A DNA stretch of 62,665 bases, counting the filler, from Dugesia japonica (Eukaryota): assembly GCA_001938525.1 (NCBI GenBank). It is 6 parts of 6 records of this genome, joined end to end, with 100 filler letters (N's around TTAATTAATTAA, not from the genome) between each part and the next. Parts side by side here need not be neighbours in the genome. Positions count along the whole stretch, not along the records: positions 30,411 to 43,257 come from MQRL01225774.1; 5 more parts are not named here. The stretch is one strand, 5' to 3'. Made by a program: the position numbers and the translations under genes. Positions 22,605-56,580 of the stretch are shown piece after piece (within the stretch, counting starts at the first letter, position 1; every line of letters starts with the position of its first letter). The notes beneath the pieces are model-generated. The model made no database searches, was not told the DNA's origin, and worked only from the letters and a program-made list of their open reading frames with translations.

Positions 22605-24095
22605 TTGAATTCCTTGATATATTTGCTTAATAAATTGTTAAAGAAAATAATAATATTACTAAAGATATATTTGAGAAATTACGTCCTAGAGGTTCACAAC
22701 CTGCGAAACTTTATGGACTTCNNNNNNNNNNNNNNNNNNNNNNNNNNNNNNNNNNNNNNNNNNNNNNGATAAAAACAGCTCAATATAAAGTTGCAAAATT
22801 ATTGGTTGATCTTATTAAGACTTTACATAAATCTGAATTTGAGTGCAAAGATAGTTTTGAATTTTTATCCTTTATCACCCAGTATCCATTGGCTAGTAAT
22901 GATTGCTTTATGGTCTCATTTAATGTAACAAGTTTATTCACTAATGTTCCATTAAAAGACACTATAGATTTGTATTGTGAAATATGGAGTGATTTTAATC
23001 CTAACAAATCTTCTTTAGATGATATAGCGTTTTATGATCTTTTATCTTTTGCAATCTCGAATGTTCAATTTCTTCTTAATGATCAATGGTATAGACAGAT
23101 TGATGGTGTCGCGACGGGATCCCCATTAGCTCCAATATTAACTTCTATTTTCTTGTCTAAATTAGAGAGTAAAATAAATGATTATTCTTTTGTTAAACCT
23201 TTAGTTTAGAAAACGTTTTTTTTGATGAAATTTTTCTTGTTTTTGAAAATTGCTCTCAAGTGCATCCGTTTTTGGAGTATATGAATACCTTGCATTCAAA
23301 TATGGGCTTTACAGTTGAAGAAGAGATCAATTCAACTATCCAATTTCTTGATTTGCTTATTGAAAGAAAGAATACTTCATTTGAAACAGAGATATATAGA
23401 AAGAAAACTGATACCGGTTTGTTTACAAATCCTTCCAGTTTTTGTGACATAAAATATAAAAGTAATATGATTAAAAGACTATTTCATCGTTCTTGGTCTC
23501 TCTCTTCTACTTTTATCAAAACAGACAAGAGTCTAAAAAATTTTTTTGACTAACTTCATAATAATTCGTATTCTAAATTGTTTACGGACAAATCAGTTTA
23601 TGAAACTTTCAATAAACTTAATAGTGATTTGTCTCGTGTGGATGCATCTAAGGTTGTAGAAACAGCTCCTAAAATTGTTTTATCTGTACCTTATTTTGAA
23701 GACTTTAGAAAATTCAAACTTTCGATTGAAAATGTCTTAAGAATATTTTAAATATAAAGGTTGTATCCCAATTTCATAAGGTTATAAATATGTCCAAAAA
23801 TAAATCGTTAACCCCTTTAGGATTGGTCTATGATCTGGTCTATCAATTTAAATATAATGGGTGTAACGCCACATACATTGGAGAGACTTCCCGTCATCTC
23901 TGCGCCAGAGTTCAAAAGCATAATCAAAATAGTGGTAATAGTAATATTGTTGAATATCGGAGAAAATGTAGGAAATCAATAGGGATGTCTGAATTTTAAA
24001 TTTTTTGAAGTGGATTTAATAATTATTGGGAGAGAGTGATGTCTGAAGCTTTGTTAATAAGGGCATCAAATCCTAAAATGAATGTTCAGTTAACA
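22605..24095 (+). mobile_element. Penelope-like retroelement (RT + C-terminal GIY-YIG endonuclease), degraded
   Basis: RPRGSQPAKLYGL, SFNVTSLFTNVPL, YRQIDGVATGSPLAP, FLDLLI, IYRKKTDTG; GIY-YIG LVYQFK..CNATYIGETSRHL..RVQKH. Confidence 0.92.
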
Positions 24096-24879: not shown

Positions 24880-27800
24880 ATAAAATAATAAATAATAAAT
24901 ATTCTACTTAACATAAAAATTTATAAAATATTTTAAAAATATCGACTTTTTTAATTCAATGAAATATTTCCTTTTACATAAAAATTTCATAAAATATTTT
25001 ACTTGATAATTTCATTAAATAAATTAAAAATATCGATTTAATTTTATGGAATATTTTATTTTACATGTTTTAAAAATAAATTTTAATATTATATATAAAA
25101 AAATTAAAGAAGGATTTCTCAAATATTTAAATCTTTGAATAATTCTTATATCCCCTCTTTAAAATATTTTTTAATCTTTTCCACATTTCTTTCAATCATC
25201 TTGCCTTCTGTACACTTCAGCAGGTATCGTCTTTCATGAATCTGATTTATCACCTCGTATGGACCTGTATATCTTTCTTTGTTTTTTTTATCTGTTTTCT
25301 ACTTTGGAAATGTCTCTTTGTTGGTGTCAACTCTCCGGATTCTTCATTCTTTACTCCATTATTGAACCATATTTCTCTATGTATTTTCTTTCCGAATATC
25401 ACTTCTGCTAGACTTATCCCCAAAGTCGTTTGGCTTGTTCCATTTAGTGTTTATTCAGTTTCTGTTATTAACTCTGCTCAATTTTTATTCTTTTTATCTT
25501 TTAATGTTGCATTGATGTAATCTCTGATCGTTCTGTATTGTCTCTTTACTATTTCGTTTGTATTATGATGATATGGGCTTGGAAAGCAAATTTTTATATT
25601 CCTTGAATCTTTCATCTCTTTGAAGGCTTTCGATTCCAAAGTCTTCCCACAATCTACATGTATCTCTTTTTNNNNNNNNNNNNNNNNNNNNNNNNNNNNN
25701 NNNNNNNNNNNNNNNNNNNNNNNNNCATCTTGTTTAACTAGGGCTGTTAAGCATATGTATCTGCTAGAATTTATCTATTATGGGACATATATATCATTTT
25801 CTTCCTAAGGTTTTTATTGAATGGCCCACAGATATTGATATAAATACTTTCAAATGGTTCATTACCTTTTAATTTTATAGTTTCCTCCTTTGTTTTAACT
25901 GTTCTTACTTTGTTCATTTGTCATGCTGTACATTACTTAATTACTTTTGACACAGTTTCTCTCAAATCTTCCATATCATATTCATTTTTTAAATAATTTA
26001 TGACTTTTCCTGCGTGCCTGCGTGCATCAATAAATTATGCATTTCTTTTACCATTTAAATTTTCTTTTCTAACGGGATCCATATTTTGCTGTCTTTTGTT
26101 TTTATTATATCTTCTATAATTCGAAACTTTTTACATGTTTCAATTTTCATATCCTTCTTTATCAGTTCAATTTCTTCTACGTTACTTTTACCATTTATAT
26201 GTATCTGAGCCTGATAAACCATTAATTGTTCTTGTCTTTATTTTTCCTTCCTTTGGATTCTTATGATCTGTTAAGCATTGTACACACATACTACAATTCA
26301 TTCTCGACTGCATATCTGCATTCGTGTGTTTTGCATCTTGTCTAAATTCCAATACCATATCTAGGCTACTAAGAAAATTTATCCACGTCTGAAATTGCGG
26401 AGTAATTGGTTTGTTTGTAATTTTCATAAATGATATCGGCTTGTGATCTGTTCTCACCAAAAATCGTTTTCCATACAAATAATGTTTAAAATGGTTACGA
26501 AAATAGTAAATGGCCAATAATTCCTTTCTTGTTATACAATATCCTTTTTCATGAGCTGACATTGCACGTGACCCATATGCAATGACTTGTTATAAACCTT
26601 TTTCGTCTATTTGCGATAAAACTCGCATCTGCATCTAGTACAAACATCTTTTTGATATCAGGAAAACTCAATATCGGTGCTTTTGTTAATGCCTCTTTCA
26701 TNNNNNNNNNNNNNNNNNNNNNNNNNNNNNNNNNNNTTGTTACTTCCACAAAGCTCTTCTAATCTTCTAGCTTTCTTTGAGTAATTATTGATAAATCGAC
26801 TATAGTAATTGCATATTCCCAAAACGCTTCTCAAGTTCTTCACAAATTTAGGTCTTTTAAATTTTTATCGCTTCAAATTTTGTTGGATCATTCCATTCTT
26901 GTCTATGACGTGTCCTAAAAATTTTACTTCTGCTTGCAATAAATGACATTTTTTTGGATAAATTTTCAATCCTTATTCATGAATTCCTTTAAAAACTTGG
27001 TCTAAAATTCTAAAGTGCTGCTCTAAATTTTCTGAAAATATCAATGTATCATCCATGTATACCATTGTTCCTCTCTATCTTCCCAATACTTTTGTCATTA
27101 ATTCTTGAAACGTTCCAGGTNNNNNNNNNNNNNNNNNNNNNNNNNNNNNNNNNNNNNNNNNNNNNNNNNNNNNNNNNNNNNNNNNNNNNNNNNNNNNNNN
27201 NNNNNNNNNNNNNNNNNNNNNNNNNNNNNNNNNNNNNNNNNATAATATTCATTACCCAAATCAATAGTACTAAAATATCTTGACCCACTCAAATTGTCTA
27301 GTATTTCCTCTACATTTGGCATCGGAAATGCCTGTTTTCCTTGATTGCATTCAGTTTTCTAAATTCTAGACATAATCTAACGTCTTTCCTTTTTTTCCAA
27401 ACACATATTAACGGAGTGTTCCATTGCGAATTACACTTTCTAATAATGCCATTGTCAAANAAATTATTGATAGCTTTATCGATCTTATTCTCTAAATGCA
27501 TTGTTTGTCTCCATGGTTTCGTATTTATTGGTTCTTTATTTGTGATTATTTGATGTTTTGCCATTGTTGCTCTGCCGATATTCCAAATATCTGCAATGAA
27601 TATTCTTTTATAAATAATTTTAACTTTCTTCAAGTTCTCGTTTGGCTTGTTAATCGATATTTATTGCTCTCTGTACTCTCTCTTCATCCGATGTACTGCG
27701 TTCATACTTTGCTTCTATATTACAAAGATACATTTCATTGGCCTCATATTTAGTCTCTCTCAGCAGTTTGAATCCAAGCTGTTTCTGTAATTCTATTACT

Positions 27801-28850
27801 CCTATTAGATTTGGATGTATCTGTTTCACGACAATTAATTTAATTAGTTTGCTTTTTTTTCTCGAATTGCATTTCTACTTTTATCGTATCTACTATTTCG
27901 AGCGGACTATTATTTACCTTATATTAAATTGTCGTCGCTTTTTAATATATTGGCTTTTCCCAATCTTTCCAAAATTCTCAAACTCATCACATTAACTNTT
28001 GCTCCAATCAATTTTTACGCCTTGTATTTCAACCGTTATACTTGATCTACCTAGCATCTTGTCATAACTTATCTCTTGTCGCTTTATCTGTTCTATCGTC
28101 AGAATTTCACTATCATCTTCTCCATTTATATCATTGATCATCTTTAGTTAGCCTTTAAACATTTCTTTCTTTAAAAACTTGTAAACCTTTTCTTTTACAT
28201 CATTGCACTCATCTACTCGTTTATCTTTGTTTCTTTTATTTGTATCATTATTTATACTACTTTTACTATAATTAACAATACTGCTATTTTTGGGATACTT
28301 AATTCATTGGGTATTCGTCTTTATAAATATTTGATCCTTCATTACAATAGTGGTCTTTGTCTTCTCTATATACACAATCTTTTCCATTTTCCTCAATTAA
28401 ATTAACGTGACTTCCATTCCTTCTTGTGTAGTTATTCGTATTATTTGAATAATATATTTTGTTGTCATTTCCGAATACTTTTCTGATCTGTTCACTTTNN
28501 NNNNNNNNNNNNNNNNNNNNNNNNNNNNNNNNNNNACAGTCCTCTGTGTGGTGACCTTTCTTGTTGCATCTTGAACAACTAACTTTGGTATAGTCTTTTC
28601 TTAAGTGTTGTTCAGATCCACAAGCATAACACTTTTTTTCTTTCTTGACAATTTCTGCTTACATGAGCTATTTTGTTACAGATCCAACACATATTTTCTC
28701 GTCTTTCGTTGTTTCTGTTCTGTTGCACTCCTACATTTCGACTTTTGTTGAAATTTGTTTCTTCAAGACATTGGCGAACTGCATCTCTGTAGTTACGAAC
28801 TACATTTATTTCTTCAGTTTTTACTTTGTTTATGATATCATCATATTCTT
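24880..28850 (-). mobile_element. Degraded Ty3/gypsy element (gag CCHC, RT, RNase H, IN, PPT, 3' LTR)
   Basis: CSRCNKKGHHTEDC (~28536-28580), IIRKCNSQWNTPL, YMDD (~27050), LDADASF, ELLAIYYF..TDHKP, SPYHHNTN. PPT AAAGAGGGGA at 25151-25160. Confidence 0.9.
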
Positions 28851-28859
28851 TAAATCAAT

Positions 28860-29830
28860 TAGCAACCACGAAATTCATTTAAAAACTAATCAAGAAATTC
28901 AGACGAAAGAAAATCTTAAAATTAATGAAACCAAAAGCAAATTCAGAATGACATCTGTTGATTTTCTTGGATTCAACATATCTTCACAAGGAGTAAAACC
29001 AGTCAAAACTCGTATAAATGTAATAATAGACTGTCCTTCACCAACCACTGGTGCCTCGCAAAGAAGATTTTTAGGAGCAGCTACATTCTACCAATGGATG
29101 ACTCCAAATCTCTCTGAAACAATGGTTCCTCTTCATAATCTGTTAGCATCATCGAACAATACTCACAGGAAGCTACTATGGACATTTGAGCATAAAAAGG
29201 CTTTCACATATATCAAAGCAGCACTAAATCGAATTACAAATATGACTACACCTGATTCAAATAAAAAGTTAATATTTTAAACGGACGCATCAAATATTGC
29301 AATTGGAACCAGTCTAAATCACGAAGTCAGCGACAAACTTGCACCTATCGCATTTTTCTCAAGAAAATTAAACAAGACAGAAAAAAGATATTCAACGTTT
29401 GACCGTAAACTCTTAACCATCTATCTATCCATCAAGAATTTCAAACATTTCAAGGCAGCGAATTCACAATTTTAACATATTACAAGCCTCTGCTATACAT
29501 TCAATCGATGAAAAACCCTACAAACAGGCAATAGCGTCATATTGAATTTATCAGCCAGTTCTCATTCCAGCTCAAATACGTGAAAAGATCAGAAAACGTC
29601 GTAGCTGACTTCTTATTCAGAATTCCAGAAGAACTATTTGAAGGCAAAATATTTTCAATAAGAACGGATGAATTGATCAAAGAACAACAATCAGACGCTT
29701 CACTCAGACAACATCACTCACTAAAAATAAAAAAGATCGACGGAATCTTGACAGATACTTCCACACAACCCAGAATTTTGCTACCAATCCGATACAGAAA
29801 TACTGAGTTTGACAGATTGCACCACATTAA
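28860..29830 (+). mobile_element. Second-family Ty3/gypsy pol fragment (RT thumb, RNase H, start of IN)
   Basis: VDFLGFNISSQGVKP, RRFLGAATFY, TDASNIAIG, IAFFSRKLNKTEKRYSTFDR, ENVVADFL.R. Confidence 0.85.
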
Positions 29831-30410: not shown

Positions 30411-30427
30411 ATAGAAATTGCATATCT

Positions 30428-30660
30428 AAGACGGGATACAGCATAGTCCCGCTGAATCCGTGAAAAGAAGGATCGGGTTACTAGAAAGAGTAGCACAAAC
30501 TTCTGTGGTTGCTAGGTGTCATCCCCCAGACAGAAAAAATATGCAGGAGAAGTAATTATGATCAAGAGATTAAAAATAAAGAACACTAAAATCAAATATT
30601 AAAACAACATCAAAAGCCTAGCAACCTAACAGGAATTTGGGGGGCTCAGCCGGCATCTCA
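30428..30660. repeat. Unclassified structured dispersed repeat, copy 2
   Basis: Homologous to 10340-10470; CGGGA..TCCCG hairpin. Confidence 0.7.
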
Positions 30661-32569
30661 TCATAAACTTATCTAAATAAAAATATCGGAATATTCAAAA
30701 TTATCACATTAAAAAAACACCAACACCACAGATTATATAGTTCAAGTTGATAACATCTTTAAATTGCCAGTGTCCTGCACGGGTTGGATAATCGGAGACG
30801 GAGGCATGTGGTGTGTTGTGATCGAGATGATGACCTTAATAAAATATTCTGTTATTAAGTATAACTATAAAATATATTCAAATAAAAATAACTGAAATTT
30901 TATGTTAATTTTAGCTTTTAACAAATATTTATAGAAAAAATCCACAAATGTATAAAAGGACTAAAAAAAGAAAATTACAAGAAACAGTTTTTTATTCTCT
31001 TAAAAACTTTTAGAAATTTTTTTTGTGTAATACGAATTTCAAGAGTTAATGCATATTGTAATATAATGCCTGTTTTTGTAATAATACTAATACAAAGAAA
31101 CAATCGGAAACTTTATGTAAATGAAATATGAAAAACTACATGAATACAAAAATGTATTTATCAATTTTGTGCAAATCAAAGAGAATATGACAATAAACAA
31201 GGAAGAGAAGATGATGATCAATTCAAGGATATAAATGTACAAATAAAAGTAGAAATTGATTTTTATAAAGTATTTAACACAATTTAGTATTTTAAAAATT
31301 TAATTAATATGCCTTCTTTTTCTTATTTTTTCAGCTTGTTTTTCTTAATGTGCTTAGGGAAGGTTCAACCACTACTAGACGACAAAACTGAATTTCAATA
31401 AAATTGTTAACATTATAAAAACGAAATATGAAGTATAGAAACTAATAAGAGCTCAGGATAAAATGAATTTTTAGGGGAAATGAGTGGATGATCTCGGATA
31501 GTAGTGAGAATTTGTGCATTGCTTATAATAATTATTTTGATATTTTAAATGATTTTATTTATCTATTAATATTTTAATGAATATTATTTAAAGCGATGTT
31601 CGCACTATGAGTAAAATTTTACTAAGTGAATTTCCGTAATAATTGAAAATTAATATTTTGGATTAAACAAGAAAGCAGTAATAATTTTTGTTATAAATTT
31701 GATGTAAAGTTTAGCAATAAATTAATTAAAATTTTAAATAATCGCAACCACGAATAATTGTTTTGTTTTTGATTATTAATTTAATGATTACGAATATAAT
31801 GAGCTAACATAAATAGTTCGGAGATATAATTTACTAGCACGGCAATTAACAGATGTCTGGTGGGTGATATTTTAAAATGATTTTATCTATTGATGGTTCG
31901 TTTTTTTTACTTAAAATTTTCATAAATGAATTCGAGCAAAAAATTGAATAATGATAATAAATAAGACTTCAAAACTAAAAATTACCTTGCGTTGAATTTC
32001 AAAAGGATAATTTTCAGAATAAAAAGATCATATGAAGAAGCTTCAAATTATAATAATATTTTGTGTCACAAAAACATTTTCTTCATTTTAATACTATTTA
32101 CTTTGTGAGTAGTTGACAGTTATATAATTTGTATAATTTTTGGGTGATTAAAACTTTGGATTTTTATTAGTGAAGATTGAGATAAAATAATTCAATTTTG
32201 AACATAATTATGTTAAGTTTATATTAAAATGATAATTTGTTTTGATTTATTAATATGAGAAATAATTAATGTACAAAATATTAAAAAAATCACTTAAAAC
32301 GTTGCAATCAATAATTCGATTAGAAATTCAAACATAAATCTGTCAGAATCAATAGCAAAATTTCATATAATCTGTTTTGTTTTAATTCGCAATTAAAATT
32401 TGCTCAATTATCAATTTGAGGCTATATCAAATCAGAAAACCATGTTCAGTAAAACATAATCATACCTTAAACATTATTTGAAAAATATTTTAAAATTTCT
32501 AATGAAATTATACCTAGAAAAATTGAAGTGCAATCAATTAAATCAATACAATACATTATTTCTCAATTA

Positions 32570-32910
32570 CAATCGATTCATATTATATTCCAAGTATTCC
32601 CTATCAAACCATAGAGCATATAAAACACCGGTTTTGCATGTTACGCAAGTGACATCATGATTATGATTCCGTATATGTTCCGAATGGTTTGATGGCTTTG
32701 TACCAACTTCATATAAATAAGATTAATGCATACACTGTAGATCGATGTTCAATAATTCAAAGCCTCCGTTGGTGTGAGTTTGTGCCAGGTTACTAAATGA
32801 AAAAACAATTAATTAATTTTTATAAATAGTAAAAATAGACTTACACGTTTTGCTACGTTATAAAATATACAAATGCTAAGCAGTTTAATAATAACTGCGA
32901 GGTGGAACAT
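32570..32910 (-). pseudogene. Possible decayed host gene: signal-peptide exon plus short-chain collagen C4-like domain
   Basis: Exon 32910-32845 MFHLAVIIKLLSICIFYNVAKR|GTAAGT; acceptor TTTTCATTTAG at 32793; downstream frame THTNGG..LQCMH*SYLYE..HNHDVTCVTC..REYLEYNM resembles HNHDVPCAVC..REY.GYLM. Exon phases do not join cleanly and there is an internal stop. Confidence 0.35.
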
Positions 32911-34589
32911 TTAAATATTTCGTTAAAACAAATCAAATATTTAGATATTAAATATTAAATATATTGAATGTTGAATATTAAATATCATTAAATTCTATAT
33001 TTTAAATTTATAGTTTTAAAAAAATATATAAAAATCATTTAAACTATTATAGTTTAGTATAGTTTAATAAAATTCAGATATTTCCATATTCTATTCGGTA
33101 AGTAACAATGCTAGCTAAAGATTTACTCTCATGTAAAGTTACTTCAACATAAAAACCTTAAAATATGGAAATCTAATTTTTACTCAATTGAAGAGAAGTA
33201 TGACATGAATTAAAGATATTGAATCGAGATTATTAGATTATTAAAATTATGCGGAAAGTGATAAAGTGAATAAAAAGTAAAGAGAGATATTTTTAAGAGA
33301 ATTTAAAGATTAACGAATAATTATTTCAAAGAAATTAAAGGAATAATGTAGAGAAGGATTAAAACGATATGAATGGTTAAATGATATGGAAATTATAAGG
33401 AATTAATGAAATAAATTGACTAAGTTGGGTAAGGGCCGCAAACATAATAACCAGAATTAATGGAGAAATTGAAACGATGAAAGGGATAATAATTTGAATA
33501 ATGACGAGTAGATGAAACAAGTAAAAGGAACCAAACGAATTAACGAATGAGTTAATGTAGATTCAAGGAGTAATCTGAAACATAATTAAATATAACCTAT
33601 ACTTATCAAGAAGTGTAGGATGGGTATCGGGACAGTCAACACAGATAGACCCAAGCGAGGTACTATCGAAATCTTAATCGACAAAGGGACGGAGAAGGGG
33701 ACTATGGCGTTATAAGAGGTTCTATGATTACTGTGGTGTCCAGCAGGAACTACTCACAGGAATATTTATTTTTTTAATTGAAATGTTTAGAGTTAGAAAC
33801 TATGAGAGAGAAATTGCAAGTGTATCGAAATATCAGAAGTGGGTTTGAAAGAAAACCTTGAGTTTGAAAGAAGACTCGAAGTAATCATAGATATTTGAAA
33901 GTACGTTATAACGGAATCGATTTTGGAAAATAGGGCCCGCAATCAGTAAGCTAGAATCCGAAGCCTGATCAACTTCCGAGAGGATAGCCCTAATTATTGT
34001 CTACTGACCAAGAAAAGGACGTTATTATTGACTAATGCTAAGAAATCTTCGAAGTAATTGTAGTGAAAGAAGATCTTCTGAAGATATGCTTGAGACTGAC
34101 TTCGAGCTCTACGGCTGTAGATAAGAAGTACTGCTCTAGAGAACTAACTACTGTGGATAGTTCTCAGGCCGAAAGAATCACGATACAAGATTTATCTAGT
34201 AAAGATCAGTCAAGATTCACAAGGAATCAATGAAGGTGTCGGCAAAGTTCAAGCATCCGTTAATGACAGGTTGACCGCCTGCTGCACTCAGGTTGGCGTG
34301 GATTTGCTTTGAAATCCATTCCCTACAGCTATCTGCTCATAGCTCTACAGAATTTTAATTAAAAAGTGAAACAGTCCTAGTAGAATCAGTCGAAAGTGAT
34401 TCGGAGAAACTTGTGATTATTGTATTTCATTTTTGTTGACTAGAAGGTACACCAGTTGCCAAAATTGGAATCAGTTTAACGAGAGATAGAAACCCCGGAG
34501 AGTTTCAACGGTAATTTCATATCCGAGCAGCACGGATATTACAAATCAGTGAAATTTCACATTTTACTGAGATGCTTCACATTAAAGAG

Positions 34590-34805
34590 TAGATTGGAGC
34601 TGAACCAGATAAAATAGACTCGCAGCTACTCTTGACACATTAGTTGGAGAGCCTGGAACTGAATTGAAATAGACTACCAGCTACTCCTGAAATAGGAAAC
34701 TGTCGATTTAAAGATAACCGAAGCTGAAAGAATAGACTATCGGCCACTTAGATATATTGAAGGATGGAAGCGATAATTGGAGGTGAATCTAAATAGCCTA
34801 CCGAT
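34590..34805 (+). repeat. Degenerate ~60-bp repeats in the leader of the gag-UBL-G element
   Basis: Four units containing GGA(G/A)CTGAA..AATAG(A/C)CTA..(C)AGCTACT. Confidence 0.55.
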
Positions 34806-35426
34806 TGCAAAAGAACTAACAGAATAATGTTAAACGATATTTTACCGTAATAATGACGAAATTTACAAAATAATTATAGTTAAGTATGAACTCATGATAT
34901 AGGATATTGGACAAATCGAGGAATAAAATTTAAATAATATACATCGTGAGAAGAGAAACAAGAAATAGAAAATGCAGAGCAGCAATCAGGAAAGATTGTA
35001 GAAATTTTGGAATAATAATTTTGTAGTAATAATGTGAAGTGATGATGGGATAAATATGGCCAAAGTAGAAATGAAAATAAAATAAGGTATGATGATTAAA
35101 GAGAAATGAAATCGAGTATAGATAAAAGTCAAATCGCGGGTAAAACCTAAGGAATTAAACGAGATAGATTGGTAGATAATGTATGCAATATGATATACAT
35201 GACTAATTAAAAGTGTGTAAAAATGTGAACTATGTGAACTAACAAAGTATAGGAATTAATAAATTAATAAATTGCGTAATAAATAATAAAAAGTATATGA
35301 ATAATAAATAATAATAAAGCGCATGTGTATTAAAATTAAACAAACTGCTAATAAGAACTAATGTTAAATGAATAAAGAAGTGATTTAGAGTTTAGAAGCC
35401 GGGAGACTATCATATTTTACTTTCAG

Positions 35427-36880
35427 GTTATTCAATAAATCAAACGATCAAGAACTCAATCAGCTAATTCATCATTGCGAATTCAGCAGACAGATACAAT
35501 CTACGAAATTCGACAAAAAACAAGAAATCTTATTCAAGTGATAAACCACATTCCGCAAAGAAAAGAAGAACAGCATCATTCAATCCACAAAACAGAAAAC
35601 TATTCGATCAATCATTCCTAACAGAATCAGGAACTCCATCAACTCCAACAAGATCTACAGATAATTTAACAGACCTAAACGAAACTAGCGAACCAGATTC
35701 AAATCCAATCGGCGATTCAAAATACAATTACAGTACAATATCATTGAGCCAATCGAATTCAGGAAGAACAAGCCCTACGACAACAGTGAGATCTGAAGAT
35801 ACCAGCGTGGAAACAATCTATCAACCATCAAGTCAATTAAACACGTGTAATAGTAACAGTCCAGAATCTAGTGACGAATCAATTATATCAGGAAACTAAA
35901 CGTATAACCAAGACACGACGATTAGTCCTATTGAGAAACCGAAGGACGACAGCCTAAGTGGAACTAAAGTTAAACATGGATCAGAATGGAAAACAGAGTT
36001 CAATGAAGAACATTATTCGAGCAACCCGGATAAATTAGAGAGTTTCATAGCGGCATACGAAATTCATAGAAAGACATGGAGATGGAGTGAGGAGAGAGCA
36101 GTAGAGCGATTGCCATTATATTTAAAAGAATCGGCGAAAACGATATATTGGAACAAAGCAAAACTAGTCAAAGATGGCGTAAAAACATGGAAGGATGCTT
36201 AAAAGATCTTAGAAGACAACTTCAAACCATTGACATTACAAGGAAACATTACATTGTCCAAGATTTTACAGCTAGACGACAGATGAAAGATGAATCTTTG
36301 CAAGCTTATGCAATAGAATTGTGGAGACTCGGAAAACTAGCCCTCGAAGACGAGGTGCAAGATAAACTAATTCTTGGAATATTTATTCTTGGAAGGTCTC
36401 AGAAACTCAGAAGTGCGAAAGTGGGTTAATTTAATGCAACCAGAAACGGTGGAACAAGCTATAAACTTAGCCGGAGTATCACAAAAAGTAGAAACTACGC
36501 CGAAACTAGCTAGTATCTTTAAAATTGAGGAGCAAGACTCAGGAGTGAAGAAGATCCCGAAGATAACGAATTGCATACCAGGAAATACGTAACCTTTGCT
36601 AAAATCATTGACTCCGGGACAGAAGACAATTGAAGAACTCAAGAAGAGGAGGTGGCAATAGACAAAATAATTGGCAACCAGCGAGTAATCAAAATTGCTT
36701 TAACTGTGGGGAATATGGACATATAGCCAGAGAATGTCGTTTAGTGTCATTAAGTTGTACATTATGCCAGAGAATAGGACATACAGCAGATCAATGTTAT
36801 ACATCAAAACCCATAGTATGTTATACTTGCAACAAACCGGGTCATACGAGTAGAAATTGCTTCAGGAATACGAGAGGGAG
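35427..36880 (+). pseudogene. gag: Ty3/gypsy-like Gag (capsid + three CCHC zinc knuckles), frameshifted
   Basis: LESFIAAYE..WRWSEERAVERLPLYLKESAKTIY, RRQMKDESLQAYAIELWRL, FLEGLRNSEVRKWV..PETVEQAINLA; CFNCGEYGHIAREC, CTLCQRIGHTADQC, CYTCNKPGHTSRNC. Confidence 0.9.
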
Positions 36881-39800
36881 TGGGTATGGAAATAATAGCC
36901 ATGGCTTCAATAACAAATCAAATAATCAAGCAATCGAAAACATGATACAACAGAATAATAGCTTACGACAGTAATTACAGAATAACCAGAAGCAGAGTCA
37001 ACAGCGAGTTAACATGATGCAACAGGAAATGCAAAAACATGAAGCAACCCAACAAAGAATATATGATCAACTCAAACAGAAACAAGAGTATTTACAACTA
37101 CAATGCGAGAAGCAGCGGGTTGCGCAGATGAGATTAAACGAGAGAGCGGCAAACCACAATACTAACAATCAAGGTCGAGTGAATATGATGCGACTAGTTA
37201 ATGAAACAGAAGTAAAGATCAAAAAGAGTGAACAAACATCGGTAAAACGAAGGATAGAAAGTAAACTCGATCTGATACAAGGATTCAAAGGAAGGATCAA
37301 CAGAAAGACTTATTGGAAATTAATGAATCACGTTATGGAACTAATGGAATGTAGCCATCTAAACCCAATTATCAAGGAGGAATGGCAGCCGGTGATCTGG
37401 GAATACGAAAACGAAATGAAAGAGCAAACGAAGCCAGACGATTTTATAATTATGATAAACTAAACAACTAAACATTTAAAATAATCAGACAAAAAAATAG
37501 CACCGTGTCAGGTCATCTTGCAAAACGATACGGGGGGAGGACTATTGTGTGCTATTTAAAACGAACAAGTATTAGAAGAGCCATTAGACAACTATGTAAT
37601 ATGTTCAAAGACGAGAGTAATTGAAAAGGACCATGTTACCGTTAAAAAAATGGAAAACTGCATAAAAGAGATAAATCTGATGATGACGGGAACAGAAATA
37701 AAAGCTCCAAAAAGCAATCAAGTGTTAATCGCACAAGTAAATATGATGACAACTAAAGATATATCTGAGACTGAAGATGAAGTAGATAATACAATCAAAG
37801 AAGAAATCGAGACAATCGAAGTCTTACGAAAGGTAAAAAGAGCTATCAAGGAACCTATCAAAGATGGAAATGATTCGACAAAAGCTATCAACAAAATATT
37901 CGCGATAACACGGAATTTTGAAAATAAATTAAACAGATGACGTTATTGGATGACAATGAATCATTTGGTAGAGTTAACGGAACCAGGCCATGTGGATATT
38001 ACAACGAAAGAGAAGTGGAATCCGTTAATCTAGGAATACAAAGCTGAGGTAATAAAGGAATCTCAAAGCAAGGATTATTTTATCTGGGTCGGAGAATCAA
38101 TCAAGCCAGTAACAATAAGCGAAAAGATATGGAATTTAACGAACTTACAACAAATGACGAAATACCATCGTCCAAGAGTCGTAAAAATCAAAGGATTAAC
38201 ATTCCGAGATCCACTGGAAGCTTTATCAAAATTAGAGTGGCCAAAACCGATAACGGAATATATCATACATACTCCAACAATGATTGTAGATCAANGTGAT
38301 GTTGATGAGCATGTATATACTTATGGAGTCAAACCAGGATGGGAACTAGAAGTCAGAGTAACTGACAAAGAGCGAGTGTATAAAGATAAAGAAAAATTAT
38401 GGCCGCACTTAGATTTTCGAGCAACTGAGGAAATTTTGAAATCGCCGTATAAATGTCATGAGTTATATTGTTCCGCTTATTAAACATCTGAAACTCAAAG
38501 AACAACAGTATCAAATTATAGAATCAAAAACAGAAGACAACAAACCTGGTACGAGTCAAGGAAGATTATTTATGATAAGATCAATATCAAACAAACTATT
38601 GAGTAGAAATAAAAACAGTCCAAAACAGGCAACAAGTATGACTGATATTAGTATGGGTGAGTTCAGTGAACCACCAATATCCACGGACGATAATTCAGAT
38701 CACGAATACTATCAGAATGTGGTAACGGTAGAAAAAAGAAACCCTATTTCAAAATGACAGAATCTCGAAGCAGTCGTACTGGAGAATAATGAATATAGCA
38801 TGGGATGAACATTATAATCAGCTGATGAGGGGAGCAAAACACAGTACACACCCAGAATTAATCGATATGTACAAAGGGAAGGTATTAAAGGAAACAGTAG
38901 GAGCAGATTTTGGGGTTAAAATCAATTATCCGACAATAAACGATAATTTAGTGATAACGATGCAAACAAAAATAATTAAAAAATTCAAGACGACAACAGT
39001 CGGTGAATTAAAAGATATATTTAATGAATTGCCACTAGAACGTGGGTTGGAAAGATATAGAATCATATGTGATTACATGAAAATTGAACGAGATAAATTG
39101 AATAATCGAGATATTCATTTAATTGAGTTCTGGTTAAGACCTGGAGAAATTACAGAATTAACGTTAGAATATGATGACGGACAACCGAGAAGTGTTGATA
39201 AATTTTCAGTCAGTAGAATGAGAACAAAGATGAGAAAAGTATATCAAGAGGAAATAGATAAAATGGATTATCTGAAATTAGTACATGATGATCAAATAGG
39301 ATTAACAATAACTGTGGGAAATGAAGTGGAACCATGGAAATTGTTGAAATGGAATTTAGCGAAAATTGGGCTAATAATACTAAATAATTTTAATTATATT
39401 AAAAGTAGAGAAACAAAAGAGGTAATAGATTGAATCAATCAACTAGGCTTAATATGCGGGGAACATTTCAATGAAGTAGTAAGAGCAATAGTCTTATTGC
39501 ATGCATCACAGACGCCAAGACAAGTAGTGAAAGTGACAGCTCACTTTCCAGATGAGTCAAGTAAAGAACTCAAAGTAAAAACGATGACAAAATGGGAGAA
39601 ATTTATAAAACAGATACTAAAGTATGTGAATAAAGAATCGCTAATAGACAAAAAAAATATTTCAAAAGTAAAAAGAGAAGATATTGTAATCTATTGCGGT
39701 GAGGAAACCACAGAAGATCTTGACAGTGATGCAATCAAATTGTCAGGTATATGGCCAGGTCACATGATGAATATATACGTATTTGCATCGGAAGATGGAG

Positions 39801-41779
39801 ACAGAAATTTGTTTACCCGAAGAGGAATAAGAGAAAGTTTATGTTGGAAAACGATACAGTATTATGTGGAGAATATGAACCCATTAGTGCCATGGAGATT
39901 ACAAATACACTCTGAGGAATTAAATTTCGAGTTTACGGAAAAAGTGACAATGTTACGGTCAAGGCAAGCATTGAGTCGTCAATATTGATCCAATCAGGAG
40001 TTAAACGGATCAGTAGAAAGGTTAGCAATGATGATACATACAAAGATAACAAACGACTATGCATCAGAAATAGTGAAACAATTTATATCATTAATTAATG
40101 AAACGGATATTCCGAGGGACCAAGTTCAGAAATTAGCAAAACAGATTCTGAAAAGTGATTTATCAATAAACGAACTAAGAGACCTGACATTTGAAATATC
40201 ACGATTTAAGGAAGAGTGTGAGTGGAGGCCATCACAGTTCAGAGCAATCATTAAAAAATGGTGAGATATAGAAACAGATGAAATTGAACCTCGACAATAC
40301 CGCTTTCAAATAATAGATCCTAAAGGATACGAAACTAAGATAGCCGGTCTGGCATACGAAACAATTGGAGTTATAAAGGAGAGAATACCGTACGAACCAC
40401 CATATATTTTGACATTAAACAATAAAGAATTGCTAAACGATGACGTAATTGGAACATTAAATATTCGATGGGAGATGTCGAACAATTTTTATATTAAACC
40501 CGAAGCGAAAAGGAAATTAGTGAGGGAAATGTTTCCACAAGGCAAAATGAAGTCTACAGGAAAACCAATCCACCAAATCACAAATTATCCACAACCAATT
40601 TTTATTGACAGCAAAGAGGGTACCAGTTACATGACCCCAAAATCGATAAAGAGTAAATCAGCGAAGCTAAAAAGACATATAATCTCCAGAGAAATTACGA
40701 CAAAAGAAGATGATATTATGAAACAATTATTTGGATTATCAAACGAAGAGGATGAAGAGATACAAATAACTCATTTTGAACCAGCAACGATGACAATAAA
40801 ACCAGTGAATAAGGAGAAGACAGTGAAAGATAGATTCAATCCTAGAGAAGTAGACTATGATATCAATAACAAAATACGGTCACAACCCAGAATATCAGAA
40901 GGAACAAAACAAAAATCACCATCATTAATGGAATTCGAGCAAAACGCAAGGACGCCAATTATACCAGAGTACGAATTTGGAGAAGAAAATATAGGTCCAT
41001 CAGCAGAATTTGAAGAGGAAATGACGACAACAGATAATAAAATCGAAACTACGGATAATCAAGAAGAAACAACAGATCACGAAATATATCAAAAAATAAT
41101 GGTCGATGTAGAGACAAAAATGGAACGAAAGGCGCGTGGACGACCAAGAGGATCTATTATGAAAAAAGGAGCAACACGTCGAAAGCCGACATAAAAGGAA
41201 CAATAAGTAGCAGTATCACAAGAGATCATGGAGAATTGTGAACTATCAGAACTATCAACGGAAAAAAGGATGCATCACGTATTACTAATATTATATCCAG
41301 AGTTAAAAATGTGGATTGGAAATACAGTATTATCGGCGGAGTGTAAAAAAATTGCAGCAATATTGGAACCTGTAATACAGAAACTACCAGCATTCAAGTG
41401 GACAGGACTGAGAGAACGAGATAAAGTAGAAAGTGCAGTCGAAAAAACATTGGGAGAATGTCCAAGCGCGTCGAAAATTGCAAAGGCATTGGCATACCTA
41501 TGTAAACAGACACAAGCGGCGCTAGTACATCGTAATACAAGTGCAAAAGTAAAAATGAACATGTTGCCAATCGTTGAAATAATATTTGATAGAATTGAAC
41601 CACTTATTTTGAAAATCGGAGGATGGTCAGCGTCGATGGAAAAATTAAAACCAGAAGCGAATCTACAACGAAATTTAGCAGAAAGAGCGCGATTGTTAAT
41701 GAAAGATTATATAGACGAAATAGGAATGGAATCTAACAGCAGCACAAGAACGAATACGAGGGCAAAGGGTATACAATCA
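36881..41779 (+). pseudogene. Non-pol polyprotein middle region: Q-rich coiled coil, VNMM repeats, tandem ubiquitin-like domains, AT-hook, helical domain
   Basis: ORFs 36630/37014/37650/38154 share one frame and 38789/39497/40028/40409/41228 share another, separated mostly by isolated stops. UBL-like segments at ~38170-38365, 38912-39175, 39521-39785 and 40292-40500; RKARGRPRGS at 41126-41155. No YxDD, RNase H or DDE motif seen. Confidence 0.65.
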
Positions 41780-43257
41780 ATGTTAATGTTATTAACGATA
41801 ATGCTTCTGATGGGCCGAGGTGCGGCGATAAAATGGATATTGGAGAAACAGTTTGCTCACTAGTAGACGTGGATAAATGTCCAGAAGCAAATCCAGAAAA
41901 ATTAGAACCAGTTCGAAAGGCAATACCATATTTTGTGTATCAGGAATCAGATTATTACAAGACAAAGGTGAGAGAATGTAGAATGACAAAGACAGTTTTT
42001 GTGTATTATTGCGGAGCAAGAAGCTATACAGCAATTATCGAAACTGGACAAGAAGTGAAACAGATTTATCTAACCGGAGAGCAATGCGAAGAAGGATTTG
42101 TAACCGAAAAGATACGAGTAGCTGAAGGAAAAATTGTTGGTGCTAAAAGTGGACAGATCATGCAAACAAGAATATTCGCATCAGGAAGCATATCGGATGA
42201 ACATGGAACATTTACTCATGGCACCTATACTGTAAATGGGGTAGTCACCAGTTATGTGGTAGCGATAGAAAGTGATCGAGTCAAATTAAAGGAATATGAT
42301 GCGTTCTTCGATACAAAAACACAATTGATGAAAATGTATACCATGTGTAAAGCGTCAGATATTTCATGTGATACGGNAATGTCAACTTTAGTATATAATG
42401 TTAATCATCAAGAATGTGCAATGACATTTCTAAAAGAAACCGCGTTCAACGAATATCAAGGTAAAAAAGTTATTGAAGTAGATGAGAAGGAAACGATACC
42501 ACCAGAAGGTAAGGTGGATGAAGCAATGAAACCAAAAACAGGTGAAATACACTGGGTAGAAACTACAGTAGTCTTAATGTCAACTGACAAAAACAATATG
42601 ATACGATTAATACGAAAAAAAACAAAATCAAAATGTGGAGAATTAGTATACGAAACGAATTACAAAGGTTTGTGGGTATCAAAAACGATATTAGAGAGAG
42701 CTAAAGCAGAAATCACACTAGAGGATAAGAAGTTACATCTCTATATTAATAATAAAGTGGATCATCTGTTTCATCTAACACAAACTTCAATAGAGAAAAT
42801 ATATCAGGATCTAGTGTGGAACGATTGCACATTAAAAAACAAAATATTAAAGACGAAATTGGCAAAAGCAACTGCAAATCCAGATAATGTATCACCATTA
42901 TTCCGATAGAAGAAGGGCAATTTGGACGAATTGTGGGAGAGGTAACGTTCAAATATCGATGCAAAAAGGTGGACGCAACGTTGGCACCAATAGAACATAA
43001 TAAATGTTATAATGAAGTGGAAATCATATATAACAGAGAAAGACGATTTGTGCAGCCAATCACTAGAGTAATATCACCAAGAGGATTTGTCCCGAACATG
43101 ATAAATTGTTTAAACCTATTTGGACCTTACTTTAAACTGCATAACAATAAATGGGTACGATTTCTAGAGAGAATTCCAGTAACAGGGGTCAGAAATTTTT
43201 CACGATTACAATTAAAAGGTGGAGCAAAATTTACACCGTTAAATGTAGCCGAAGGTG
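41780..43257 (+). pseudogene. env: Chuvirus-type / gB-like (class III) envelope glycoprotein ectodomain, truncated by scaffold end
   Basis: Signal-like MLMLLTIMLLMGRGAA; SLVDVDKC, VREC..YYCG..SY, KCGELVYETNY..L, LYINNKVDHL..IY..L..NDC, G.FGRIVGEV..Y.CKKV, KCYNE..I.YN..FVQPITRVI. This Cys/motif spacing matches chuvirus G and retroelement-borne homologs as I recall them. Frameshifts at ~41830 and ~42900. Confidence 0.8.
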
Positions 43258-43357
43258 NNNNNNNNNNNNNNNNNNNNNNNNNNNNNNNNNNNNNNNNNNN
43301 NTTAATTAATTAANNNNNNNNNNNNNNNNNNNNNNNNNNNNNNNNNNNNNNNNNNNN
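43258..43357. other. Artificial scaffold linker
   Basis: N44-TTAATTAATTAA-N44. Confidence 0.97.
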
Positions 43358-44192: not shown

Positions 44193-44765
44193 TTAGGTTA
44201 AGGAATATTAATTGCGTATTTTAGTAATATATTTAAATCAACAAAGAAATTTTTTTTAGAATGTCATTAAATAATGTATTCTCCATTGAACTGGACAACT
44301 TGTCACCATCTCTGTGATAGTGCTTCAATCCCTTTGCGATAGAGCTCGTGTTTGTTTTTAGTCGAAAAAGCTCGAGATCGCTTCTTTGCTTGCTTCTTCA
44401 TTTTTTAACTCCTGTCTATTCAAATTATTTTGAAGACATCGAAATAAGTAATAATCCGATAGAGCCATGTCGGGAGAACATGGTGGATGTGGCAAGACTT
44501 CCCATCCAAGCATCTGTATTTTTTCCTGAATCAATCGAGTAGTATGTGGTCTGGCATTGTCATTTAGTAGGATCACATCTTTTCTCTTTGTTAAGATAGA
44601 CCTGATATTTTGACTCAATCTCTCTAATTGTTGAAAATAGAGTTCAGCATTTATAGCAGTGTTCTCTTTCAACAGTTCCCAATGCACAATACCATGGATA
44701 TCCCACCAAACAGATTATAACACCTTTTAGAATGTGCACCTGGTTTGGCAGTTTGTAAGGGTTAC
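44193..44765 (-). mobile_element. Mariner transposon 3' portion, inactive
   Basis: VWWDIHGIVHWELLKEN, LLNDNARPH, LPHPPCSPDMALSDYYLF; terminal TA-TTAGGTTAAGGAATATTAATTGCG. Confidence 0.9.
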
Positions 44766-46859: not shown

Positions 46860-49030
46860 CCTCCTTTGTGCTCACACATGGTTCCAGCGATTTATTTGGT
46901 CGGAATTCAGATGTTCGATTAAGATCAATGAAGTACAAGGTGCCATGGTATACCCGGATGACAAATTTGTAGTTTAAATTTAGATGGAGGAATTTTTTTT
47001 GAGAATATAGAAATTAGTTTAGACGGAAAATTGGAAGCAAGTTTGAGAATAAATTCGGAAAAATGCTCTTTTACGAAATTGAAGATAAATTTTTAGGCCA
47101 CATAATTAGGGAAAGAGGAATTCAAACAGATCCAGTGAAAGTAAAAGCAATCAAATCTTTCGGAGAACCAAAGTTTGTAAAGAAACAGCCTAGTTTTCTC
47201 TGCATATGCAACTACTACTGGACGTTTATTAAAAAGTATACGATGAAGGCTAGGAAATATGAAAAATCATACAGTGGTCAGCAGAACACAAAATTGGTTT
47301 GGTCGGCAGAATTGTCGGAGATTTTTGAAGGATAGAAAACAGAACTGACCAAGATTTTAGTGCTTAGGTTCCCAGATTTAAGAAGAGAATTTATCTCAGA
47401 TATGGATGCTAGTTTTATTACTGTTGGTGCATTTTTCTCATATTAGAACGAATATATGAAAAAACGTTTGATTACATACGGTTAACATGCCATGTATAAT
47501 CATTAGAATGTTTATTGTATAATCAGGAAGAAATTTCAAGAAGTTTATTATTTTCGCTTATATTTTAAGCATTATCTCTATGGGAAACATTTCAAGCTGA
47601 GAACGGATCACGAATTAATTATGTTTATGTTAAGCATATCAAAATTGGTTACTAGTCGTTTACAAATGTGTATTAATTTTTTAAGTGCGGACATCAAGTT
47701 GGAATAAGGTTACTCTTCACGGGAATGTGAATATACTCAGCAGATTGAATTATGACAAATGTGTGCATTGTCAGATGCAACATAAGAACGCGAAAGACAG
47801 AAAAGAGTAGATGAGGCTGCTAGAGACTGAGTATTGCATTTTAAGGGTTAAAACTGAGATTTATGATACAAGAGGAACTATGGTAAATAAAGAAAAAACG
47901 TGATTAACAACGGAGTAATTAGATTTAGTAGATTCGCGGGTTTTTATATCATTCAGGAGCGGAAAAGACGGAGAACTACATATATGCGGGAAATTCTGGA
48001 TACCGTTTGAGACAAAGAATGAAACTTGTATTTAATGCTAAAAAGTGACGACTGATACAGTGAAAGTTAATGAAGCTATGGTTTTGTCGGAAAATTTTGA
48101 ACCGTTTGAGGTGACTTTTGTTGACATCTGCGGACCTTTAAAAGAAACAAAATGTAGAAAGAAATATATTCTAGTCATAATTGAACAATGTTCGAAATAT
48201 ATGAAACTGATAGCGTTAGTTAGAAAGGACGAATTAACAATTCGGCAGAATATATTGACAGAATGCAAATAGAGGTTTGGATGCTAGATCAAGTTGCTGC
48301 ATAAGATTCAAAGCTAGAGAGATTAAAGATTTTACAAAAATGTTAAAGTTGATCTGGCATGTGACGAGTCCTTACCATCACAAAACTAACGGGCAGATTA
48401 ATCCATAGTTCGAGTAGGTACCGGACTTCATGAAGTGTAGAATACAAGAAATGTGAACATTTGATTGTGCGAAATTATTGTCAGAAATTGAGTTTTCAAT
48501 AAATAAAAGTAAACAAAAAACGATTGCAAGTGAATTTGACAGAAATGGTTTTTGAATAATAAATCAGTCGAGAAAGATGTCAATCAAAGAAAAATGAAAA
48601 TTGTGCAATGAAAATAGAAAGACATAATTCGTATAAGTATCTGACAAGAAAGAAATTCGAGGTTGAGGTTGAAGCAAAAGATAAAGAGGAAAACAGATAT
48701 AAAGGCCTCTACGAAATAGTGGAGAAGCAATGTGTTAGCCAATCAAGATGAGAAGGAGCTCACAGGTAATGTCGAAAAATTTAACTTTCTTGAAAAAGGG
48801 CTGAAGGCATTGTGTGATTTTCGAATGTTTTCAATTATCTTTCTTAGTATAAAATAAATTAAATTTGATTTTTATTTAAAATTAAAGAAACATTTGTTTT
48901 AATATTATATGCAATAGATTTTTTATATAAGTGTTTAAATTTAATTATTTAATTTTATTTGTAATTTAGAATTTAAATTTAATTGGTAGATAAGCATTTT
49001 ATATTTGTCGATTTTACGAAGAAATTATTT
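46860..49030 (+). mobile_element. Heavily degraded Ty3/gypsy pol with 3' LTR remnant
   Basis: KFLGHII..GIQTDP, SFL.ICNYY, DMDASF, HYLYGKHF.LRTDH, FEVTFVDICGPL, SPYHHKTNGQI. Confidence 0.85.
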
Positions 49031-51439: not shown

Positions 51440-51960
51440 ATAATTGTAAAATAAGACAATATCAAAAGGAATCTTCCTGATTATAAAATAGCAAATATGA
51501 ATTTCCTAATCATTAAAATAGACAATATCAACATGAATTTCCTAATTTTAAACTAGAAAATTATCAACTGAATCCCCTATTTATAAAATAAAAAAATATA
51601 TCAAAACGAATTTCCTAATCATAAAATAGACAATATCAACATGAATTTCCTAATTTTAAACTAGAAAATTATCAACTGAATCTCCTATTTATAAAATAAA
51701 AAATATATCAAAACGAATTTCCTAATCATACAATAGACAATATCAACATGAATTTCCTAATTTTAAACTAGAAAATTATCAACTGAATCTCCTATTTATA
51801 AAATAAAAAATATATCAAAATGAATGTCTTAGTGTAAAATAGAAAAAATCAAAGCTGACTTCGTAATTCCAAACCAAAAGAATATCACCATTAATTTAGT
51901 AATCATAAAGTAGAAAATCTCAAAATTAACTTAATAATTATAAAATCGAGAATTAGGTCA
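51440..51960. repeat. Higher-order tandem repeat (~109 bp x3, built from ~36-bp monomers)
   Basis: AATCATAAAATAGACAATATCAACATGAATTTCCTAATTTTAAACTAGAAAATTATCAACTGAATCTCCTATTTATAAAATAAAAAATATATCAAAACGAATTTCCT repeated three times, with degenerate monomers on both sides. Confidence 0.9.
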
Positions 51961-54300: not shown

Positions 54301-56580
54301 GGAGAATAATATAAAACTGGAATGGGTTGGAACAATTGAAGTAGAACAGAAAACAAATATTTCGTATCATCAACTGCAAGGCATACCAAGTGTTACGGTA
54401 TCAATTCAAAGAAATGAAGTCGAATGTTTATTAAATACAGGGGATCGAATTAAATTTATGAGTTTGAGTTATTTTAATAAATTACGAGAACTACATTTAG
54501 AAATGAAAGATAAAAGATTGCTTTGTGCAAATAATGGTACACTTGAAATTGTTAAGGAAGTTAAAACTAGAGTGATAATTGATGAAGTTTGGCAAAGAGA
54601 TCACTTTCTTAGTTGCTGAAAGAGTGACACCAGATCTAATAGGAGAAATAGATGTTCAAAAAGTTTTTTGATATCAGTTTAGGCGAAACTTTGATAGCAA
54701 AACGGATGAAAAAGTTGAAAATTAAATTTCTAATATTGAATCGAAATTCGGAAGACAAATTAAAAAGAGAGAGCGATTGACAAGAGCCTTAAATATTTTG
54801 AAGATTAAAGGGGATCAACGGTCATTGAAAATAATTGTAAGTAAAGAAGATGCTTTTATCGCAGATAAATGAGATGTAGGACACATATATCCGACAANAT
54901 GCAAAATAATCAAAAGTTGTGAACCAATCAATGTAAAACCGTACAATCAACCAATGAACTTATAATATAAAATTGAAGAAACTATCCAAATCCTTTTCGA
55001 GAATAATATTATCCGGAAATAAAACTCTCCATGGAATACCCCACTGATTTGTTTTTGGAAAAAGAAAAAGACGGACATTGAAATATGTTTGGATTTCAGA
55101 AAACTGAATGCAGTAACAAAAATACAAGGCTTTCCGATGCCGAGCGTTGATGAAATGCTGAAATTAGATGAAGAAAATTTTTTAAGTTCAATAGATTTGT
55201 GAAATGCGTATTATCAAGTAGAACTCGAAGAAAAATCTCAAGAAAAAATAACGTTTTCAACAAAGCACGATCAATATTGTTTTAATAGATTGCATTTTAA
55301 GATCGCAGCGGCACGGAGAACATTTCAGGAGATGATGACAAAAGTGGTAAGTGGAATTAAAGGAGCTATGGTTTATATCGATGACATTCTGATATTTACG
55401 AACAATAAAGATCAACACTATGAAGTAATTGACCGATTATTGATGGAAATAATGAAGGCTGGTTTAAGAATTAATCCCGTTTCTTCAAAGCGAAATCAAA
55501 TTTCTTGGACACATAATTAACAAGGATGGTGCTGGAACTAATCCGTCTATAATAGAAGCAATAAGAACAATTGACAGGCTTAAATTGCGTGAAAAAGTTA
55601 CAAAGCTTCTTAGAAATTTTTAATAACTGCAGGAAATTTATTGAAAACTACGAAAAAATCAAGGATCTTAGAAAAGTTGTGTAGCGGACCAAACAACAAA
55701 ACGTTAGGATGGACAGATGAAATAAACGATACTTTTCAGGATCTAAAGAAATCTCTAATGACTGCACCAATATTGTATTTTCAAGACATAAACAGAGAAT
55801 TAACGTTAGATACAGATGCCAGTTTCGATAAAATTGGAACAGTATTGTCACAGAAAAATAAGGAAGAAAGAGAAAAGGTTGTTGCATATTGATGACACTC
55901 AATGACAAGTCATGAAAAGGGATACTGCATCACACGAAAGGAGGTATTGGCTGTTTATTATTTCTGCATGCATTTCAAACATTACTTGTATGGTAGAAGA
56001 TTTACTCTTAGAACAAATCATAAAGTTCTAACTCTAATGATGAGGTCACAATTCAAGACTAGTATTAATTAACTGAGTAGTATAGACATAGTTTTGGAAT
56101 ATAGAAATGAAATTCAACATGGTAATGCATATATGTTATCTAGACCAAGATGTCAAGTTTTTGTACCATCTCAAATATCACATGAGGATGTCAAGAAAGG
56201 GAAGTTTAAAGTGAGAAGACTAAACATAATTGAAAAGTAAAAAGAAGAGCAATTAAAAATTTCTGACGAAACAGATTTAATCAAGAAACTAAAAATTTCG
56301 AATGACAATATACATGAGAGAATAGAAGAAATAATTTAATTATTATGCCATGCAGGAGTTGAAAAAGTGTACGAATATATGAGAAACAAATATATTGCTA
56401 AGAATTTGTGAAGCCAAATACTGAAGATAGTTTGTAGTCATGAAATTTGTCAGAAGACCAAAGTAGTTAAAAAAGAGAAGACAAATTGATTAGAAGCTAC
56501 CAATTTCTTTGAAGTCATATTCAAAGATATATGTGGGCCAATGCTGGAAACAAGTGAACGGAAAAAATACATTCTTGGAA
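54301..56580 (+). mobile_element. Degraded Ty3/gypsy pol (protease, RT, RNase H, IN N-terminus)
   Basis: VECLLNTG (protease-like), SPWNTPL, CLDFRKLN, VYIDDILIF, LDTDASFD, HYLYGRRFTLRT, LCHAG, DICGP. Confidence 0.9.

Follow-up and report, generated by a model that had tools for sequence, protein, structure and literature searches.

We describe a retroelement at positions 33,591 to 43,257 of a 62,665-nucleotide stretch of DNA from the planarian Dugesia japonica (GenBank assembly GCA_001938525.1; the whole stretch, six parts of six records joined end to end with filler between them, is hereafter the window; positions 30,411 to 43,257 come from record MQRL01225774.1). Very probably it is what remains of the 5′ portion of a Burro-like Ty3/gypsy retroelement of high copy number, no longer active and cut off by an assembly gap; the active form would likely be made as one polyprotein with pol predicted beyond the gap. 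Over the visible 9.7 kb, from long terminal repeat (LTR) to gap, we observe in order an LTR-like repeat, a capsid, zinc knuckles, internal repeats, an AT-hook, a predicted Bcl-2-like domain, a hydrophobic stretch and a glycoprotein; the copy is decayed and its copy number is high. The first-pass annotation of this DNA had called the architecture unfamiliar, which does not hold: the layout is described for planarian Burro/GYPSM1 (PMC6431247) and for gB-type errantiviruses (PMC13524379). The element is a new member of that published layout, a single chain in which env stands after gag and before pol having been in print since 2019.

The visible element ends in a cysteine-patterned glycoprotein of the gB/chuvirus type, as had been proposed. 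PF24664 (Monjiviricetes_fusion) matches it on two frames (E 1.2e-24 and 8.1e-11), covering profile positions 35–448 of 653, and five of its cysteines fall in columns that are at least 90% conserved. When an 18-sequence glycoprotein profile was searched against the PDB at E up to 1, all 22 matches were to herpesvirus gB, each of them weak (E 0.12–0.51). An HSV/gB-type env (HSV, herpes simplex virus), the kind carried by GAG-ENV-POL errantiviruses, is present, and by its PF24664 match this mononegavirus-like env lies in the reading path of gag, across 15 stops and 7 frame changes.

A full-library search recovered 168 relatives of the glycoprotein, 150 of them listed, and a tree was built from the 88 with enough coverage, the 62 shorter matches being excluded. 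In this quick tree the window glycoprotein sits in a 19-row group with 18 database proteins (97 in the Shimodaira–Hasegawa-like approximate likelihood ratio test, SH-aLRT). Ten of the 18 extend past the glycoprotein and all ten run into a protease (nine by Pfam, P0011 by a DTGA motif), five of them reaching reverse transcriptase (RT)-RNase H and four integrase; the other eight end within or just after the glycoprotein. Pol upstream of the glycoprotein was found in none of the 14 group members scanned. Moreover, in P0009, P0013 and P0024 the glycoprotein is preceded, in frame, by Gag or knuckle families, and the order in P0013 is that of the window: capsid, knuckle, a weak ubiquitin match, AT-hook, a weak Bcl-2 match and glycoprotein. 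Pfam families specific to BEL/Pao were found neither in the window nor in any of the 14 + 2 scanned relatives. Word-index searches for homologues found none and, as relatives at ~40% exist, these blanks carry no weight; a scan of metagenome loci gave no relative. Of the two options offered by the first-pass annotation, the first, env upstream of pol within one polyprotein with pol lost past the break, is the most likely, since the nearest glycoprotein relatives are so built; what it loses is its novelty.

Taken as eight successive frame segments, whose borders were chosen by eye, the + strand path through 35,427–43,257 holds 15 stops in 2,596 codons, compared with a mean of ~173 and a minimum of 151 in 200 nucleotide shuffles. 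The run stays on a single strand throughout, with an A content of 42%. Indel differences in other copies coincide with four of the seven frame changes (12 of 80 rows). The pattern of stops and frame changes is compatible with, though no proof of, a single ancestral frame that has been disrupted in the present copy, in keeping with the ~7.8 kb of same-strand, A-rich coding sequence and the single ancestral open reading frame (ORF) of ~2,600 codons suggested at first sight. The present copy is unable to make the polyprotein.

A Ty3-type capsid and three CCHC knuckles at the start of the path were likewise borne out. Pfam alone gave no capsid family in the window; a Gag profile of three relatives matches 36,029–36,217 (independent E-value, iE, 9e-8) and 36,232–36,393 (iE 2e-7), the next best match in six frames of the whole window being 2.9. 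Among the relatives, the Gag of P0013 matches the dArc2 capsid (E 0.007) and P0024 matches Retrotrans_gag (E 2e-4). The knuckles follow at 36,696, 36,756 and 36,819, so that the Gag capsid is succeeded by CCHC knuckles, of which Burro/GYPSM1-like elements have two or three.

Just ahead of the glycoprotein three features stand in series. The AT-hook, already noted in the first-pass annotation, is marked by an RGRP motif, and a basic GRP motif precedes the signal peptide in P0007, P0009, P0010 and P0013 too. Next comes a predicted Bcl-2-like domain that had been missed: a profile of four relatives matches 41,435–41,650 (iE 1.4e-4, against 0.49 for the runner-up in the window), and a five-sequence profile that includes the window member matches Bcl-xL (E 5.6e-4). 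Four of these five members match Pfam Bcl-2 and the window's own domain alone gives no match; at the profile level a BCL2-like domain thus lies directly before env. The ESM Atlas gave no useful match for this part (0.75). Ferritin-like matches of a model of the region were rejected as a generic helical bundle, the AlphaFold model, made without an alignment, being unusable (predicted local distance difference test, pLDDT, 44). Last is a signal-peptide-like hydrophobic stretch (41,768–41,815), which ranks first in hydrophobicity among all 15-mers in the five translated segments, in agreement with the signal peptide predicted earlier; by eye, a signal peptide occurs at the same place in 13 of 13 relatives examined.

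The element exceeds the bounds first given to it (35,427–43,257), its start lying ~1.8 kb further upstream and its 3′ side being cut by the gap at 43,258. Summed contig depth rises ~7- to 40-fold in the bin 33,537–33,627 and falls after ~34,540 in runs X1, X3 and X12, a step that is likely a 5′ LTR of ~0.95 kb; the step is present in three of four runs and absent in run X8, which was taken as RNA. A second copy of the LTR candidate was not found within the window, and the 3′ LTR would lie outside the visible part. By eye the leader shows no clear primer-binding site, and the window holds no tRNA genes. All 30 bins of 32,500–43,257 are covered in all three public contig runs, by 2,651–5,420 contigs per run, most of them <95% identical to the stretch. 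The element thus belongs to a large family, of which this copy has diverged from most of the rest; contig depth is not copy number, however, and at 80% likeness a conserved gene also draws related families. Contig depth shows no drop toward the gap at 43,257. Multiple genomic copies are indicated by the contig counts, alongside the LTR-like depth step.

Several further observations concern the same region. Within the leader, four loosely repeated units of ~58 bp can be seen by eye at 34,600–34,810, where Tandem Repeats Finder reported none. Run X12, labelled as a second organism, contains the LTR and leader (32,900–35,600) at lower depth, reflecting either a related species or carry-over within the study. 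In three runs the summed depth over the glycoprotein (41,834–43,257) is ~2–4 times as high as over the gag-cargo region, which related families sharing a conserved env could explain. One poly(A) RNA run, of which a quarter was read, gives scant indication of a transcript: 3,331 of 3,340 reads matched partially, chiefly at a single zinc knuckle belonging to another transcript, and depth was at most 2.5 per strand in 27 of 30 bins, a single run that says little on expression.

Table 1. Features of the element, in window positions.
Feature	Position	Strand	Basis
Likely 5′ LTR, ~0.95 kb	33591..34543	+	Contig depth; 3′ edge ends TTACA; 5′ edge degenerate, placed mainly by depth; edges inferred
A-rich untranslated leader	34544..35426	+	Contigs throughout; composition
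Ser/Thr-rich Gag N-terminal part	35468..35899	+	Open frame; no family match
Ty3/gypsy-type capsid, interrupted by a stop and frame changes	36029..36393	+	Relatives-only Gag profile
Nucleocapsid, three CCHC zinc knuckles	36696..36860	+	Motif scan; Pfam zf-CCHC E 2.4e-14
N/Q-rich, probably coiled-coil segment	36861..37250	+	Translation, motif scan
Internal repeat R1, ~150 aa, with a helical part rich in Trp and a possible beta-grasp part	37251..37700	+	
Internal repeat R2	37881..38366	+	
Internal repeat R3	38732..39181	+	
Candidate ubiquitin-like (beta-grasp) domain, weak	39512..39799	+	ESM Atlas neighbours below lead threshold
Helical domain, then candidate ubiquitin-like domain (40,286–40,510), weak	39989..40510	+	Pairwise match to P0016
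AT-hook-like motif (RGRP at 41,135), acidic stretch before	41123..41155	+	Motif scan
Predicted Bcl-2-like domain	41207..41671	+	Profiles of relatives
Predicted internal signal peptide	41768..41830	+	Hydrophobicity
Class III (gB-like, Monjiviricetes-type) glycoprotein ectodomain, two frame changes, cut before membrane anchor	41830..43257	+	PF24664, relatives
Stops	35,465, 35,897, 36,200, 36,590, 36,972, 37,461, 37,482, 37,557, 37,938, 38,031, 39,431, 39,986, 40,262, 41,192, 41,204	+	
Seven frame changes	near 36,250, 36,390, 36,610, 38,480, 38,730, 41,825, 42,900	+	
Assembly gap with spacer	43258..43357	.	N runs; AT-rich unrelated DNA beyond (composition)

Between the knuckles and the glycoprotein lie 4.9 kb in which the first-pass annotation saw no pol motif, and this was upheld: none of the scanned protease and RT patterns occurs in six frames of 36,900–41,750, and the Pfam scan, in which only the zinc knuckles and the fusion glycoprotein gave matches of weight, found no pol families. 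This region instead carries cargo. Three repeats of ~150 aa, overlooked at first, resemble one another at z 22 (R1–R2), 10 (R1–R3) and 7.3 (R2–R3), scores reached by 0 of 300 shuffles. VNMM motifs at 37,008, 37,179 and 37,737 (motif scan) are perhaps protease cut sites. An array of ubiquitin-like domains had also been proposed; it is plausible by eye and was not confirmed. The ESM Atlas clusters with names nearest to 39,512–39,799 are p85B, Kindlin-N, FERM F0, plexin RBD, GRHL1-C and RA, which we take to be mostly beta-grasp folds, and their scores of 0.76–0.80 make a lead below the threshold of 0.9. The segment at 39,989–40,510 matches the pre-G domain of P0016 (E 2.7e-4, pairwise in a 13-sequence set). 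For the ubiquitin-like candidates the Pfam search was blank, shuffles scored as well as a profile built from relatives alone, profile searches of the PDB stayed at chance level (best E 0.16 and 1.1), and an AlphaFold model made without an alignment was unusable (pLDDT 38).

Among the closest published systems, Burro1-4/GYPSM1 are giant gypsy elements of Schmidtea mediterranea, with a Burro-like element in Dugesia tigrina; their internal region reaches 25 kb and the whole exceeds 30 kb (Arkhipova and Yushenova 2019, PMC6431247). As described there, a Gag with three knuckles is followed by Smc, MATH, Ubi2/SUMO-like, BCL2 and env domains in frame between gag and pol, the env matches mononegavirus fusion proteins, and pol (PR-RT-RNase H-IN) follows env in frame, together with BIR and ankyrin domains. 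In the D. tigrina element MATH lies outside ORF1, and decaying Burro fragments are noted in D. japonica itself (PMC6431247). Our element shares with Burro/GYPSM1 the three-CCHC Gag, a predicted BCL2-like domain directly before env, a mononegavirus-like env after gag without pol between, and high copy number, and it may also share a coiled-coil segment and ubiquitin-like cargo. Unlike Burro/GYPSM1 it gives no MATH match (neither MATH nor Smc-like segments matched Pfam at E up to 1, a Q-rich segment being present), and its three ~150-aa repeats are not mentioned in section 7 of the Burro account (PMC6431247). Pol, BIR and ankyrin would fall outside the visible part, and the two are likened by description, not by sequence.

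For the glycoprotein a direct comparison can be made. GAG-ENV-POL errantiviruses with a gB-type env are reported from nematodes, bryozoans and flatworms, six of them in S. mediterranea (Chary and Hayashi 2026, PMC13524379). The nearest are Smed_errantivirus_5 and Smed_errantivirus_6 of the Platyhelminthes C1a group, in which a gB-type env follows gag, and the window glycoprotein is identical to them at 69 and 70 of 161 gap-free columns (~43%; domains I–II, hand count). Identity is lower, at 31–38%, in all but one of the 12 between-family pairs shown for comparison (PMC13524379). The window glycoprotein is none of the six printed; moreover, those are intact, whereas the window copy is decayed and its pol is not visible. 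BEL/Pao elements with a chuvirus-like glycoprotein (PMC7642597) share the same broad family, PF24664. Unlike theirs, the window glycoprotein groups with env-before-pol polyproteins, and a gag-pol-env order with a BEL/Pao pol was not seen, there being no pol between gag and env and the nearest glycoproteins preceding pol.

Several points weigh against a Burro-like element with pol beyond the gap. Pol of this family was not seen in the window, where the RT pieces found elsewhere are only distant. Tree support comes from a quick tree only. Several group members (P0007, P0008, P0010 with its cluster mate P0156, and P0012) start after Gag, and a single frame from Gag to pol is therefore not universal in the group. 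Furthermore, Pfam found no MATH domain, the LTR candidate of ~1 kb is short for a Burro of >30 kb, and none of the contigs listed spans the whole stretch.

The absence of pol could instead mean that the family never had one, as in the second option of the first-pass annotation: a non-autonomous gag+env family, copied by the enzymes of a helper element while itself supplying particles and the fusogen. Such a family would agree with the window, where no pol is seen, and with the raised depth over the glycoprotein relative to the middle region in 3/3 runs, from which more than one kind of element may share the glycoprotein. Against it, copy number cannot be read from contig depth, and at 80% likeness related families are gathered by any conserved gene. 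The break is an assembly gap inside the ectodomain, and protease follows in all ten clade relatives that extend past the glycoprotein. We found no positive support for this option and regard it as improbable; equally doubtful is its fuller form, a pol-less, helper-dependent particle maker with expanded cargo (three helical-plus-beta-grasp modules, ubiquitin-like domains and a tethered Bcl-2-like domain) that would spread on borrowed enzymes.

It is very unlikely that an ordinary gag-pol-env element lost or replaced its pol in this copy. The copy is indeed decayed and small deletions occur among other copies, but the 4.9 kb from knuckles to glycoprotein are coding and covered by other copies in every bin, none of the 15 joints shown, of 102, points to a lost pol-sized piece, and the region ends in the same AT-hook, Bcl-2-like and signal-peptide series as in relatives with pol after env. 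No more credible are two independent insertions of gag and glycoprotein sharing a strand by chance, for although the window is full of nested repeats and depth steps up at ~41,830, where a frame change also falls, the signal peptide just before that point shares its frame with the cargo upstream, these parts form one chain in relatives, other copies show indel differences at ~41,825 and at three other frame changes, and the interior of the element showed neither an LTR nor a target-site scar.

Returning to a Burro-like polyprotein with pol after env, we can propose how an intact copy would work, extrapolating from the relatives and from general retroelement biology. RNA from the 5′ LTR would be translated as one chain, in which the internal signal peptide would send the glycoprotein into the lumen of the endoplasmic reticulum. 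A C-terminal anchor, present in relatives, would return the chain to the cytosol, where pol would come next. Capsid, nucleocapsid and cargo would be released by the element's own protease, for which the VNMM motifs are perhaps the cut sites. With the signal peptide as its membrane tether, the Bcl-2-like domain may resemble a tail-anchored Bcl-2 protein and could delay cell death. Particles with an envelope would then pass between cells and insert new copies.

The relatives vary in their own right. In P0156 (4,844 aa), RT and integrase are surrounded by seven aspartic-protease-like domains, ankyrin repeats and a C2H2 finger, and P0009 has several protease copies. For P0014, an env-protease-RT-RNase H-integrase polyprotein, NCBI gives a Flavobacteriaceae genome bin as the source, but this is likely animal DNA in a bacterial bin. 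Of two distant glycoprotein relatives, P0153 and P0051, one is preceded by a C-type lectin domain and one leads straight into an RNase H domain.

The rest of the window is AT-rich, gapped and full of repeats. Broken gypsy-type RT/RNase H pieces of other families lie at 13,700–14,850 (−), 26,270–27,650 (−), 28,790–29,760 (+), 47,020–47,770 (+), 54,750–56,580 (+) and 57,850–58,570 (+). The four that were scored match the RT of the env-before-pol clade only distantly. As candidates for the element's pol these pieces were rejected, being 32–53% identical to clade RT compared with 49–82% within the clade, and the two values of at least 50% each covering at most 20 residues. By eye, fragments at 4,169–6,202 and 16,327–19,608, on both strands, resemble what we take to be a Polinton/Maverick protein-primed DNA polymerase; 22,634–23,553 (−) is presumably a Penelope-like RT fragment and 44,358–44,714 (−) a mariner-like transposase fragment. 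A tandem array at 51,498–51,946 has a 35-bp unit in ~10 copies, with a higher-order period of 107 bp.

As a layout the element adds little to what is published. Its value as one member of the group is to illustrate how much the cargo region can differ, with ~2,100 codons from the start of Gag to the glycoprotein and three tandem repeats unmentioned in section 7 of PMC6431247. Whether such elements form infectious particles in flatworms, and whether Bcl-2-like and ubiquitin-like cargo may act on the death of host cells in an animal reliant on the turnover of its stem cells, are questions that belong to the whole group; for them a decayed, truncated copy is a poor subject and the published intact families a better one.

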